64,000 nt of DNA from Abditibacterium sp. (GTDB lineage: Bacteria > Armatimonadota > Abditibacteriia > Abditibacteriales > Abditibacteriaceae), in assembly GCA_965199495.1 (NCBI GenBank), contig CBDASK010000003.1:1536001-1600000 (forward strand). The letters run 5' to 3'. The position numbers and the translations under genes are program-made. A model generated the notes under the pieces. It was not told where the DNA came from, did no database searches, and worked only from the letters and a program-made list of their open reading frames with translations. Positions 10,869 to 16,003 of the stretch are shown here, in pieces (positions within the stretch are counted from its first letter, which is position 1; each line of letters opens with the position of its first letter).

Positions 10869-12575
10869 TTACGCGTCCAAATCCACGCCCTCGATCTCTT
10901 CGGCGCCCGGCAAATCTTCGAGGCTCATCACGTTGTCCAGTCCGTCGCCCGTTTCCATTTCGTCTTCCGCTTCCAGGTTTTGTTTGGCGGTTTGCAACAA
11001 AGTCGAGTGTTCAGTCGTATGCTTTTCGGGATGAACTTTCATGCCCTGATGCAAAATTTGATCGATCAAATCCACGATTTGCGGGTCGAACTGCGTGCCC
11101 GCGCAACGCTTTAATTCGCCCACGGCGTCCTCGTGCGAGACCATATCGCGATAGGGACGCGGCGTCGTCATCGCATCGAACGCGTCAACGGCGCCCACAA
11201 TGCGCGCCACCAGAGGGATGCCCTCGCCCGCCAGACCATCGGGATAACCGCTACCGTCCCATTTTTCGTGGTGATGCAAAATCCCATCGGTCAGCCGGTT
11301 AAGCGTCGGCACGCGCAAAACCAAGTCGCGACCAATCGCCGGATGCTTCTGAATAATGGAAAATTCTTCGTCCATTAACTTGCCCGGCTTGAGCAAAATG
11401 CCGTCGGGCACGCCGATTTTGCCGATGTCGTGCAGCAAAGCCGAATAACGCACTTCGTCCAATTTCTCGCCCTTGAGTTCCAGGCGCCGCCCGACCTCGA
11501 CGGCCAAACGCATCACGCTTTCGCAATGTCCGCGCGTGTAGGCGTCTTTGGCTTCGATGGCGTCGGCCAAAACCGCGATGGTCGAAGCGTAAGCCTCATT
11601 GAGTTCGTGGTGCAAACGCACGTTTTCCAGCGCGATTCCGGCGTGCTGACCGATAGACAATAGCAATTTGGTGTCCTGCTCGTTGAAGTCTCCGCTGCGT
11701 TTGTTGGCCAAAAGTAGCACGCCACTGTTCTTGCCTTTGGCAGCCACCGGCAGAGCCGACAGGTTGACCAGACCGGAACCGTCGGGCAATTTGTCGCTAT
11801 CGTTTTCGACTAAGGGCGCGTTTTCGGTATGAACGCGGCGCGTGAACTCGAACAGCGCGTTGGCGATTTCGGGTTTGAGATCGTCCATGCCCAGCGAGGC
11901 GATCACATCGTCGCCGTCCGATTGGGTGAATAAACCGACTTCGGCGCCCGTCAGTTGGCGCGCCATTTCGATAATTAGCGACGGCAAATCGTCAATTTGC
12001 AGGTCGTGCAAATCCAAAACTTGCGCGAACAAATCGTCTTTTTCGCGCTCTTTTTCTTCGTTCTGGCGCACCAAATCGGCGACGTGAGAATGCAAACGCG
12101 CGTTTTCCTGCTCGGCCTCACGCTTTTCAGTTTGCAAATCGGCGTGAGCATTGTTCAATGCCTCGTGCGCTTCTTCGTGCGCTTCGAGTTGCCGCGCTAA
12201 CTGCGCGATTTGATGATTCAACCGCGCGTTCTCTTCGCCGCTCTGGCGATTATTTTCTTCGAGCGCGGCGTTTTGATGCGTCAAACTTTCGTTTTCGAGC
12301 GACGATTTGTCGAGTTGCACGCGCAACTGTTCGACCTCGGTCTGCAACTGCGCGATCTGCGCGCTCAAATTTTCTTGATGGCGCAGAGCGGCTATCTTTT
12401 CGGTATCGAGCGACAAAACGGCGGCGCGCGCGCATTCGAGTTGTTGATGCACGGCATCGAAAGCCGCCAGAGCCGAAGCACTGGCCGAAGGTTGGTGCAT
12501 TTGCGGATGATCTTGCAGCACGGCGCAATCATCAATTGAGTCGGATGTGGGCGGTAAATTGGCGGAGAGAAACAT
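10869..12575 (-). CDS. Coiled-coil + GAF + HD-GYP cyclic-dinucleotide phosphodiesterase
   Basis: KDAYTRGHC, LLHDIGK, HHHEKWDGSGYP, VDAFDAM, RPY. Confidence 0.92.
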   Translation of the reverse strand: MFLSANLPPTSDSIDDCAVLQDHPQMHQPSASASALAAFDAVHQQLECARAAVLSLDTEKIAALRHQENLSAQIAQLQTEVEQLRVQLDKSSLENESLTHQNAALEENNRQSGEENARLNHQIAQLARQLEAHEEAHEALNNAHADLQTEKREAEQENARLHSHVADLVRQNEEKEREKDDLFAQVLDLHDLQIDDLPSLIIEMARQLTGAEVGLFTQSDGDDVIASLGMDDLKPEIANALFEFTRRVHTENAPLVENDSDKLPDGSGLVNLSALPVAAKGKNSGVLLLANKRSGDFNEQDTKLLLSIGQHAGIALENVRLHHELNEAYASTIAVLADAIEAKDAYTRGHCESVMRLAVEVGRRLELKGEKLDEVRYSALLHDIGKIGVPDGILLKPGKLMDEEFSIIQKHPAIGRDLVLRVPTLNRLTDGILHHHEKWDGSGYPDGLAGEGIPLVARIVGAVDAFDAMTTPRPYRDMVSHEDAVGELKRCAGTQFDPQIVDLIDQILHQGMKVHPEKHTTEHSTLLQTAKQNLEAEDEMETGDGLDNVMSLEDLPGAEEIEGVDLDA

Positions 12576-12733
12576 GAGACAACGTAAAACTTGGGGCGGG
12601 CGCTGGACGCCCTTTTAATTCGGATGTTCAGCGCATTTCACGCCGAAGTCGTTCGCAATTACGGTTAAAAATTCCTAAGACTTCGGTTAAAAAAGCGCAG
12701 ACCAACCAGTGAACGCGATTTTCAACGTATGAC

Positions 12734-14353
12734 TTAGAGCAATGATTCCGCCGTGGCTTGGGCTTGGTTCTGCTGCGCTTGATCCAATTCTTCCTGCTCG
12801 ATGACCTGAAGATAATGATTGGACTGTTCCTGCGAACGTTTGAGCGCATCAGGGCGTGGACGGGCCGATCTTTCGGCCAGGGCCGCGAAATGATCGTTAG
12901 TTTTCTGGCTTTCTTGCAGAATTTTTTCCAAAACATTCACGACTTTGGGGTCGAACTGGCTGCCCGCACAACGCTTCATTTCGTCCAACGCTTCCTGCGC
13001 CGAAACGGACTGACGGTAAAGGCGCGGCGTCGTCATCGCTTCGAAGGCATTGACGGCGCCGACGATGCGCGCGGCAATGGGAATTCTCTCGGCGGCCAGC
13101 CCCGAAGGATAGCCGCTGCCGTCCCATTTTTCGTGCTGATGCAAAATCGCGTCGGCCACGAAATGCAGATGCGGCATCCGCAAAACCAGATCGCAGCCGA
13201 TCACGGGATGGGTGCGCATAATCTTCTGTTCTTCGTCATTCAACCGCCCCGTGTTGAGCAATATTCCGTCGGGCACGCCGACTTTTCCAATGGCATGAAG
13301 CAATGCGGCCTGACGCACCTCTTCCAGTTGTTCGGCTTTGAGATCGAGTTTTTTGGCGACTTCAACGGCCAACAACATGATGCTCTGCGCGCGCCCGCCG
13401 GTATAAGCATTGCGAGTTTCGATGGCGTCAATCAAAGCGGAAACGGTATCGTTATAACGCTCTTCGTGTTGCCGGTAAAACTTCGCGTTTTCCAGCGCGA
13501 TAATCATCTGCGGCTCCAACTGTTGGAGCCGGTGGCTGTCCGCAAGGGTAAAGTCGCCGTCCGATTTGTTGGCCAGCAGCAAAACGCCGCCGTTTTCGTG
13601 ATGGGCCGCAAAGGGCAGCGCGATGAGATTGAAAAACTCGCAACTTTTCGGCGTGTTTTCGAAATCGTTTTCGATAACCGCTTCTTTGCCCTGACGAACT
13701 CTCTGCGTGAACTCGAACAGTTCGTAAGCCACGCGCGGCGGCAACCCGTCTAACCCACGCATTGCGGCGGCATCTATGGCGCTCGAATCGGTGAGAACGC
13801 CAACTTCAGCGCCCGTAATTTCGCAGGCGGCAGTTACAATTTGCCCGACCAAATCTTCAGTTTTGAGATCGAAGAGCGGCCCCATTTGTTGCAACAACTT
13901 GTCGCCTGACGAATCGTCGAGTTCGCTGGCAGCGCCCTCGATTTCGTTGATTTGCTGCTGCAAGCGAGCGTTATCGCCTTCCAATTTTTTGTTGTGGTTT
14001 TCCAAAAATTCGATGAGTTCGCTGGCGTCATTCAATTCCGATTGTAACGTTTCAATTTGTGCCGTCAAGCCTGCTTCGTGCGCGAAGTGCTGCGTTCTGG
14101 CGCTGTCACTTTCCATTTGGAGCGCCGCTACTATTTGGCGCGATTTTTCGAGTTGCTCGATGACATCGCGAAGCGCCGCAACGGCAGTTTCTCCCCCGTT
14201 GTCGGTGGAATCTGCCTGGACTTTTTCCAACGCGGAATCCGAGTTCGGGTCGCCGGATTTTTGGTGCGACTCCGCCGCGACGACCGATGAAGAACGCACG
14301 GGGACGGGAATGATAGAAGGGGCGGATGAGGGAAAAAGAGCGCGGGGTTTCAT
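12734..14353 (-). CDS. Coiled-coil + GAF + degenerate HD-GYP protein
   Basis: Paralogue of the neighbouring gene with LLHAIGK, TGGRA, HQHE, VNAFEAM. Confidence 0.85.
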   Translation of the reverse strand: MKPRALFPSSAPSIIPVPVRSSSVVAAESHQKSGDPNSDSALEKVQADSTDNGGETAVAALRDVIEQLEKSRQIVAALQMESDSARTQHFAHEAGLTAQIETLQSELNDASELIEFLENHNKKLEGDNARLQQQINEIEGAASELDDSSGDKLLQQMGPLFDLKTEDLVGQIVTAACEITGAEVGVLTDSSAIDAAAMRGLDGLPPRVAYELFEFTQRVRQGKEAVIENDFENTPKSCEFFNLIALPFAAHHENGGVLLLANKSDGDFTLADSHRLQQLEPQMIIALENAKFYRQHEERYNDTVSALIDAIETRNAYTGGRAQSIMLLAVEVAKKLDLKAEQLEEVRQAALLHAIGKVGVPDGILLNTGRLNDEEQKIMRTHPVIGCDLVLRMPHLHFVADAILHQHEKWDGSGYPSGLAAERIPIAARIVGAVNAFEAMTTPRLYRQSVSAQEALDEMKRCAGSQFDPKVVNVLEKILQESQKTNDHFAALAERSARPRPDALKRSQEQSNHYLQVIEQEELDQAQQNQAQATAESLL

Positions 14354-15446: not shown

Positions 15447-15476
15447 TTGCGCTCCATAAGCAAATCTGATTATAAT
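15447..15476 (+). promoter_or_regulatory. Putative sigma-70 promoter of the tRNA cluster
   Basis: TTGCGC-N18-TATAAT. Confidence 0.55.
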
Positions 15477-15507
15477 TATTTCCGCGCCAAATTGGCGCAC
15501 CAAAATC

Positions 15508-15603
15508 ATGTTTGTTTTCGGCTTGAACTTAAAACCCTTCGCTTTGCAGAATCTGCAAACGAATGGTTTCGTTCCACTTCCGACAGCGCGCATGAATTTC
15601 TAA
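15508..15603 (+). CDS. Putative 31-aa leader peptide [31 protein letters not shown]
   Basis: ATG..TAA between promoter and terminator; enriched in TTG/TTA/AAY/CAR codons. Confidence 0.5.
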
Positions 15604-15623
15604 GTTCTCAGAAATCATTGATT

Positions 15624-15668
15624 AAACGCCCGCCTCTGGAAGTCCCGGAGGCGGGCGTTTTTGTTTTT
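15624..15668 (+). terminator. Intrinsic terminator / attenuator upstream of the tRNA cluster
   Basis: AAACGCCCGCCTC-loop-GAGGCGGGCGTTT followed by TTGTTTTT. Confidence 0.85.
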
Positions 15669-15680
15669 CTGATGCGATTT

Positions 15681-15751
15681 TGCTTGATCGTCTAAAGGTA
15701 GGACTTCTGACTTTGGCCCAGAAAATCTTGGTTCGATTCCAGGTCGAGCAG
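15681..15751 (+). tRNA. tRNA-Gln(TTG)
   Basis: Acceptor TGCTTGA/TCGAGCA, anticodon loop CT-TTG-GC, T loop GTTCGATTC; no encoded CCA. Confidence 0.88.
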
Positions 15752-15767
15752 TGGAAATTTTTCCAAT

Positions 15768-15839
15768 AGTGAGGTGGCGAAGTGGTAACGCGACGGCCTG
15801 TTAAGCCGTTCATCGCAGGTTCGATCCCTGTCCTCACTG
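15768..15839 (+). tRNA. tRNA-Asn(GTT)
   Basis: Acceptor AGTGAGG/CCTCACT, ACGGC-CTGTTAA-GCCGT, GTTCGATCC; no CCA. Confidence 0.9.
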
Positions 15840-15843
15840 TAAG

Positions 15844-15916
15844 GTGCGCGTGGCCCAATGGCAGAGGCGGTCGGTTTAAGCCCGACGTGTTGCGAGTTCG
15901 AGTCTCGCCGCGCACA
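15844..15916 (+). tRNA. tRNA-Leu(TAA), short variable loop
   Basis: Acceptor GTGCGCG/CGCGCAC, GTCGG-TTTAAGC-CCGAC, A73; 73 nt. Confidence 0.85.
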
Positions 15917-15929
15917 GAGTTAGTTTTTC

Positions 15930-16003
15930 GCCCGCGTAGCCCAATTGGTAGAGGCGCTGGATTCAAACCCCAGAGGTTCGCAGTTCGAGTCTGCGCGTGG
16001 GCA
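15930..16003 (+). tRNA. tRNA-Leu(CAA), short variable loop
   Basis: Acceptor GCCCGCG/CGTGGGC, CTGGA-TTCAAAC-CCCAG, A73; 74 nt. Confidence 0.82.

Follow-up and report, generated by a model that had tools for sequence, protein, structure and literature searches.

The tRNA unit located on the plus strand at positions 15447-16003 of the window, that is, of the whole 64,000-nucleotide stretch of Abditibacterium DNA analysed here (G000:C3:1536001-1600000), is quite probably a ribosome-mediated attenuator that gates four spare tRNA genes and opens when ribosomes are delayed at codons for Leu, Asn, and Gln. The original prediction, which had read the unit as tRNA genes controlled by a leader peptide sensing its own codons, gains support from sequence comparison with respect to the conservation of the leader, the match between leader codons and tRNA cargo, and the covariation of the antiterminator. 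All the elements it had named, i.e., the promoter, the 31-codon upstream ORF, the terminator, and the four tRNA genes, are present, as indicated by the sequence, ARAGORN, and Rfam.

Transcription would start at a predicted sigma-70-type promoter, TTGCGC-N18-TATAAT (-35 at 15447-15452, -10 at 15471-15476). Only three of six bases of its -35 element agree with the consensus, which is why a promoter scan did not return it. A TTG[CT]-N17/18-TATAAT-type match is present in all 11 Gln-Asn-Leu loci and a TTGAC/TTGC-N17/18-TAnnnT match in the 15 remaining loci, and housekeeping tRNA genes of the same genome (G000) are also preceded by a TTGC-type -35. A short G+C hairpin predicted at 15484-15498, which has similar counterparts in relatives, presumably forms the 5' end of the transcript. 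It is followed by the leader ORF (15508-15603, 31 codons), whose ATG and open frame are found in all 11 aligned loci, at a length of 31-36 codons. No Shine-Dalgarno-like sequence precedes the leader ORF of the window, and 10 of 32 leaders have one by the duplex cut-off used. The ORF comprises the Leu/Asn/Gln-rich sensor stretch (codons 6-19, 15523-15564), delimited by codon counts versus expectation, and the putative antiterminator strand (codons 23-28, 15576-15591), which can pair with the loop and the 5' arm of the terminator. The latter is an intrinsic terminator (15624-15668) composed of a 16-bp hairpin (15624-15660, about -32 kcal/mol) and T5-G-T5. At each of the 33 loci, 17-35 nt separate the end of the leader ORF from the terminator. 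The gap between the terminator and the first tRNA gene is 12-35 nt in the window and in most Gln-Asn-Leu loci, and therefore leaves little space for a separate promoter. A hairpin with a T run at most 110 nt upstream was found for 3 of 44 first-in-unit tRNA genes of G000, and two of these three are attenuator loci. The unit is flanked by a divergent superoxide dismutase gene (sodA) on one side and by a co-oriented AAA-R3H gene downstream, and the latter is the downstream neighbour in five genomes and at one metagenome locus. Elsewhere in the window (10869-14353), two tandem minus-strand genes encode, as judged by eye, coiled-coil, GAF-like, and HD-GYP-like parts; the upstream gene of this pair lacks the HD-GYP motif letters present in its partner.

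The sensor codons correspond to the tRNAs encoded downstream. The claim that the four cargo tRNAs decode eight codons of the 6-19 stretch proved correct, and this count compares with 1.8 expected from genome codon usage (8/14, binomial p 9e-5). At the amino-acid level, 9 of 14 codons match the cargo vs. 2.5 expected, and at ten related loci the number of matches is 8-12 of 14. The relation of leaders to cargo was examined in 26 loci (21 genomic and five metagenomic, in 13 leader clusters) over 14 codon positions, 17 to 4 before the antiterminator; three leaders without tRNA cargo, four truncated or incompletely called cargos, and three metagenome duplicates were left out. The cargo was edited by hand, in that interrupted or degenerate tRNAs were added in G010, G011, and G012 and distal tRNAs at G013b and G022a, and two weak calls were removed. 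The match score of leaders with their own cargo was attained by none of 200,000 cluster permutations, at the amino-acid level and the codon level alike, although such figures overstate independence, since the clusters have a distant common ancestry. The control stretch between the antiterminator and the stop codon gave p of 0.24 and 0.15 and the two other reading frames p of 0.32-0.94. As the original codon range had been picked after data inspection, the test was repeated with the whole ORF, with a range set by the distance to the terminator, with sequence-only clusters, and with the discovery cluster removed, each time with 0 of 100,000 permutations attaining the score; removal of the four first-seen clusters gave 3 of 100,000.

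Thus tested, the codon content of the leaders follows the cargo across the 13 clusters. For instance, the leaders of G013b and L220 are related and differ in cargo, and each fits its own. A locus with Arg/Cys/Asp/Ser cargo scores 11/14, and a Gln-Asn locus without Leu tRNAs has Q or N at 9 of 14 positions. The weakest matches are those of G019b (2/14), G000b, G020b, and L226 (3/14), and G006b (4/14), with Ser/Tyr and Asn-only cargo among the loci scoring 3/14. Codon-level tracking is imperfect within the genus, where CTC codons persist at loci in which Leu(GAG) is absent, and the amino acid sequence of the leader is loosely conserved (9 synonymous and 11 non-synonymous variants among the closest four). 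By sequence, the sensor codons lie upstream of the antiterminator and relate to the genes downstream, as attenuators require. A structured non-coding RNA or riboswitch was rejected as a candidate, because Rfam gave no match to one and because the codons match the cargo in one frame only, which suggests that the leader is translated.

Of 61 genomes searched at the DNA level, 22 gave matches, including 18 of the 26 family relatives. Eight genus genomes (G000, G002, G004, G006, G007, G010, G011, and G012) have a Gln-Asn-Leu(n) unit preceded by leader and terminator, and a unit of this type is found also at three distinct loci from metagenomes, of which one is limited to Gln and Asn. In all 11 of these loci the Leu/Asn/Gln-rich middle of the leader and the terminator are retained together with the ATG and the open frame, so that the proposed ORF passed the check on conservation in relatives. 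The unit of G007 lacks Gln, and that of G011 has an interrupted Gln gene. In the latter (L003:1742-2490), about 750 bases of low-GC DNA stand in place of most of tRNA-Gln, and Leu(CAA) is degenerate too; we presume that the insert may encode a minus-strand HNH-type nuclease, as judged by eye.

A degenerate terminator pattern matched 16 of the 27 genomes of the family, as against 5 of 374 genomes outside it, with no match for the reversed control and none in viral contigs; the five outside matches examined have no same-strand tRNA downstream. Of 26 family loci examined (25 pattern matches and G019a), 21 are promoter-leader-terminator-tRNA units, three are leaders without standard tRNA cargo, and two are ordinary gene-end terminators. 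A tRNA lies within 400 nt of the pattern match in 12 of 77 GTDB and 12 of 95 metagenome cases, and all the 12 tRNA-adjacent GTDB matches belong to Abditibacteriaceae, Abditibacterium, Abditibacteriota, or Armatimonadota. The units contain from 1 to 21 genes, and arrays of 14-21 tRNA genes stand behind the same switch in family relatives. At G023 (L086), a leader of His-Arg-Leu-Trp type and a terminator are followed by no tRNA genes and have lost the antiterminator pairing, which by sequence makes this locus a likely relic. A second attenuator of G000 (L060, G000:C3:4309188-4309650, minus strand) comprises a 56-codon leader, tRNA-Ser(UGA), tRNA-Tyr, and a 76-aa ORF; downstream of it lie a gene for a 526-aa protein with a weak, below-cut-off match to the Ro60 vWA domain and, further on, a ThiF-family gene. 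At four loci (L087, L185, L220, and L093), tRNA-like elements with a recurring motif are placed between tRNA genes or replace them, with Ro60/TROVE downstream at L087. We take these elements to be possibly Y-RNA-like; Rfam recognises them only as tRNA, in long matches of 131-134 nt at two of the loci, L087 and L220.

As the original prediction had pointed out, ACTTCCG at 15576-15582 is complementary to TGGAAGT at 15637-15643 in the terminator. In the 11 Gln-Asn-Leu loci, the partner of the terminator loop and the upper 5' arm is a strand whose first codon is 23-25. With the register set by hand and anchored on the ungapped terminator, 69 of 77 core pairs are retained (slid controls, 15-40 of 77), and both-sided, compensatory changes occur at four of seven columns; the own pairing ranks best of 120 permutations of five subfamilies. 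Partner search was narrowed to 90-20 nt before the terminator, because an unrestricted search took far-upstream partners at 6 of 33 loci, and within this range the start of the best partner lies 47-90 nt upstream of the terminator at all but one of the 33 loci. At the same 32 loci the duplex exceeds the mean of its shuffles in stability, G023 being the one that does not, and it is significant at the single-locus level (p<=0.05) in 18 of 33; taken alone, that of the window does not stand out from shuffled sequences (z -1.4, p 0.095). The conserved pairing indicates that the antiterminator and the terminator are mutually exclusive.

Ribosome masking was modelled in 26 loci by minimum-energy folds of transcripts cut at the terminator loop, where the loss of pairing under a mask covering the antiterminator strand follows from the set-up itself and constitutes no evidence. 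When a ribosome was placed in the sensor, the fold contained the antiterminator in 26 of 26 loci, in line with the prediction that a stall at codons 6-19 frees this segment. This holds for truncated transcripts; the full-length G000 leader folded into the terminator in 10 of 10 masked states, and the decision of the switch must therefore be kinetic, i.e., co-transcriptional. In the comparison of folds with and without a ribosome, proposed as a check, the antiterminator forms also without any ribosome in 19 of 26 loci, the window locus included, and with a ribosome at any position upstream of it. In the full-length fold a long hairpin covers the ORF, but the ribosome-free antiterminator is seen in those 19 truncated transcripts. 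With a ribosome at the stop codon, which had been expected to mask the antiterminator, the pairing re-forms in 15 of 26 loci; a footprint of -15/+12 covers its 3' half and leaves the 7-bp core free, so that the expected masking is partial. The folding models suggest that the untranslated state leans towards read-through and, given the 19 of 26 ribosome-free folds, that a general failure of translation probably opens the switch too.

Both ARAGORN and Rfam detect all four tRNAs of the unit (50-67 bits), which we regard as spares because housekeeping isoacceptors of all four are encoded elsewhere in G000. They are tRNA-Gln(UUG) (15681-15752; U1-A72, with an A31-C39 mismatch in the anticodon stem; housekeeping copy at G000:C3:3273287), tRNA-Asn(GUU) (15768-15839; A1-U72, not U1-A72; housekeeping copy at G000:C3:415822), tRNA-Leu(UAA) (15844-15916; short variable arm; long-arm housekeeping copy at G000:C3:2889030), and tRNA-Leu(CAA) (15930-16003; short variable arm and one anticodon-stem mismatch; long-arm housekeeping copy at G000:C3:111631). 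None of them encodes CCA, which is encoded in 1 of 66 tRNA genes of G000. The lack of a long variable arm makes the spare Leu tRNAs 73-74 nt long vs. 83-84 nt of the housekeeping ones. The short-arm Leu form is probably chargeable in this genus, since the sole Leu(UAG) of G000 (G000:C3:3473050-3473125) is short-armed, as is the stand-alone Leu(UAG) in seven of seven genus loci checked. Two distinct sequence types occur among the stand-alone Leu(UAG) genes of the genus (L299-L301, L315, L316, L318, and L322). The A1-U72 pair of the spare tRNA-Asn is present in six of six Gln-Asn-Leu loci compared, whereas housekeeping tRNA-Asn has U1-A72. No GlnRS or AsnRS was found above the cut-off in G000, and the charging of Gln and Asn here would appear to need on-tRNA amidation. 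Bacterial GatCAB is reported to read U1-A72 (PMC2811023, in passages that do not cover A1-U72).

The acceptor stems of the spare tRNAs are conserved (divergence 0.13 vs. 0.16 for housekeeping tRNAs), but their anticodon stems are diverged (0.44 vs. 0.12), and so are their T stems (0.29 vs. 0.05). The change in the anticodon stems fits the evasion of nucleases and also a relaxed constraint, which could account for it because the T stems diverge too. Certain other extra tRNA genes of G000 have no such leader, namely a Glu-Trp-Ala cluster (G000:C3:4061305-4061537), a Trp gene, a tRNA-like gene that ARAGORN calls Stop(UUA), and Ile(UAU) (4263025, 4284143, and 4621966). In the housekeeping tRNA-Leu(UAA) of G004 (L292) and G006 (L293), the anticodon loop carries inserts of about 670 and about 290 bases, respectively, with shared blocks. 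We presume that they resemble a group I intron; at the gathering threshold, neither has an Rfam match.

A switch of the same layout precedes rtcB. This gene is present in all 27 family genomes, in 20 of which it has a leader and a terminator upstream, the leader ending 18-43 nt before the terminator; of the seven rtcB genes without a leader call, four had less than 450 nt of upstream sequence. In G000, a promoter, a 40-codon leader, an antiterminator, and a terminator are predicted at L325:893-1155 (G000:C3 ~2253900-2254165), further rtcB loci being L329-L357. The 11 rtcB leaders with a matched promoter have mixed codons, with L+N+Q amounting to about 20%, and use 9-11 different amino acids per 14 positions vs. 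5-8 in Gln-Asn-Leu sensors. At some leader-tRNA loci, genes of Ro60/TROVE, Hen1, or RlaP are located downstream, and by layout the co-regulated genes encode RtcB, Ro60/TROVE, Hen1, RlaP, and SPFH proteins. At L082 and L226, a single tRNA-Asn stands between an Asn-rich leader and a Hen1 gene (by Pfam, Hen1_L in the case of L082). A scan of G000 for further switches (145 hairpins) recovered the window locus, rtcB, and two unconvincing others; the scan is insensitive, as it missed the known Ser/Tyr locus.

The mechanism that we propose assumes that the leader ORF is translated. An unhindered ribosome would sweep codons 23-28 during synthesis of the hairpin, the terminator would form, and transcription would stop at about 15668. 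If a ribosome is held at codons 6-19, or if none loads, codons 23-28 would remain available for pairing with the loop and 5' arm of the terminator, and polymerase would enter the tRNA genes. Their products would refill the pool whose shortage had opened the switch and thus close a product-feedback loop.

Three other explanations deserve consideration. The unit may be a general sensor of translation stress, like whiB7/wblC, opened by any stall or failure of initiation, with the codon match being secondary or leftover. The ribosome-free antiterminator of 19 of 26 loci and its formation with a ribosome anywhere upstream agree with this, as does the presence of rtcB behind the same device with mixed codons, and the Anabaena array is described in the accessible part of its report as induced by ribosome antibiotics of any class (PMC8421152). 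We nevertheless consider it unlikely, since a general sensor gives no reason for sensor codons to track different cargo across 12-15 clusters, or for rtcB leaders to differ from tRNA leaders. An attenuator of the classical kind, responding through uncharged tRNA to starvation for Leu, Gln, or Asn and thereby to nitrogen or branched-chain supply, would share the geometry of amino-acid attenuators; starvation would likewise stall ribosomes on these codons, and both Gln and Asn seem to depend on amidation on the tRNA. It is made distinctly improbable by the metabolically unrelated sets combined at other loci (Arg/Cys/Asp/Ser or Glu/His/Lys), by the co-regulated proteins, which are RNA-repair factors and include no biosynthetic enzymes, and by the consideration that a tRNA cargo would not cure a shortage of amino acids.

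The unit could also be a decaying relic of a phage-derived or otherwise horizontally acquired array, silenced by the terminator, in which the switch was functional only in an ancestor. Its tRNAs are 77-80% identical to phage tRNAs among the blastn matches listed, arrays lose members (as with the interrupted Gln gene of G011), and in G000 the Leu tRNAs are fewer and the sensor is more diluted than in G004, with two stem mismatches in addition. Every element of the switch (promoter, ORF, antiterminator, and terminator) is intact and conserved genus-wide, though, the AAA-R3H neighbour persists downstream, the cargo-less G023 has lost its antiterminator pairing as well, and the terminator pattern is without a match in viral contigs; among the best 20 of 58 phage records, blastn matched only tRNA bodies. 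This makes decay a very improbable explanation.

For the codon-specific attenuator that we favour, the most likely trigger would be the loss or damage of tRNA, e.g., by anticodon nucleases. This is suggested by the occurrence of the same switch ahead of tRNA and RNA-repair genes in the family, by the uselessness of extra tRNA against amino-acid shortage, and by the preservation of acceptor stems alongside diverging anticodon stems. Ribosome antibiotics and general stalling probably open the switch as well. We give about even chances to a broader reading of the sequences, in which Abditibacteriaceae have a tRNA-damage regulon placed entirely on leader-peptide attenuators, with own-codon leaders controlling nuclease-evading spare tRNAs and mixed-codon leaders controlling RtcB, Ro60, and Hen1. 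In its specifics, the destroyed species alone would be replaced, and the evading variants would be those with altered anticodon arms and the short-arm Leu form.

The control of individual tRNA genes in bacteria is described as largely unknown in the accessible text of PMC8421152, and the solved case of a tRNA array relies, according to the available part of PMC10272220, on a repressor protein, TrcR. If our reading is true, the leader provides a direct, species-resolved feedback on tRNA supply by way of the codons of its own products. It also opens a way to test what silent spare tRNA genes are for, as the leader specifies at which codons a failure is expected to induce them. The family supplies at least 12 naturally re-tuned sensors and the mixed-codon control of rtcB, all of them short, and such leaders might be used as biosensors for tRNA-cleaving toxins.

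Leader-peptide attenuators are known from amino-acid operons and pheST (trpL, hisL, pheL), with thrL and ilvGMEDA as multivalent examples. On sequence grounds, the unit of the window appears to have the testable defining features of a multivalent attenuator of this kind. It shares with the trpL/hisL/pheL type the promoter, the ORF with control codons, the antiterminator overlapping the 3' part of the ORF, the terminator, and the sensing of several amino acids. It differs in its cargo, which is composed of tRNA genes, so that the likely signal is tRNA supply and not amino-acid supply; in its control codons, which are interspersed and re-tuned for each cargo and do not form tandem runs; and apparently in the 1:2 protector hairpin, which is obligatory in the trp type and may not be so here, as the untranslated state tends to antiterminate in the folds, as in whiB7 and not as in trp. 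The available text on pheL treats it as a leader-peptide attenuator (PMC3082878), the accessible attenuation text of PMC2965389 has no occurrence of 'tRNA gene', and the passages of PMC11404447 at hand give no case of tRNA genes as attenuator cargo. Leader-peptide control of tRNA genes was not found in the titles and abstract openings covered by our search of a largely open-access literature.

T-box riboswitches likewise sense tRNA and act by antitermination, but they read the charging state directly, whereas the device described here is based on an ORF. They reportedly may precede tRNA genes in Clostridium. The T-box was rejected as a candidate for the window, in which Rfam gave only the four tRNA matches at the gathering threshold and none to the T-box model with its Stem I and specifier.

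The whiB7/wblC leaders of actinobacteria, as far as the accessible part of PMC10287673 describes them, also combine a uORF with a terminator opened by ribosome stalling, and their induction has been linked to tRNA cleavage by VapC5. The product of whiB7 is a transcription factor and its leader is described as a general stall sensor, whereas the leader of the window precedes tRNA genes and matches them in its codons. With the L-arrays of Anabaena and mycobacteria, judged from the available excerpts, the unit shares supernumerary, divergent tRNA genes and the link to rtcB and SPFH/slipin proteins, the stress induction being reported for the arrays. The Anabaena trn array is induced by translational stress, with 23 of 26 tRNAs charged (PMC8421152), and is controlled together with rtcB by the repressor TrcR (PMC10272220), in the sections of these papers that were accessible, in which the words 'attenuat' and 'leader' do not occur. 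Thus, a DNA-binding repressor serves the Anabaena array, and in Abditibacteriaceae split units would each have their own codon-matched leader. A short-variable-loop tRNA-Leu is described in the mycobacterial cluster in the passage available (PMC6582537). The genes of the window are supernumerary, co-oriented, and duplicate housekeeping isoacceptors, as in L-arrays, but with four genes the unit is not an L-array, since these comprise up to 43 genes, spread horizontally, and often have an HNH gene; it is relatives that carry arrays of 14-21 genes. In enterobacterial RtcR systems, damaged tRNA turns on rtcB through a protein activator and an alternative sigma factor, according to the accessible text of PMC10272220, whereas rtcB of Abditibacteriaceae has a predicted leader-peptide switch upstream. 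Taken together, the sequence comparisons point to a known type of control applied to an unusual target, the tRNA genes, with unusually strong comparative support.
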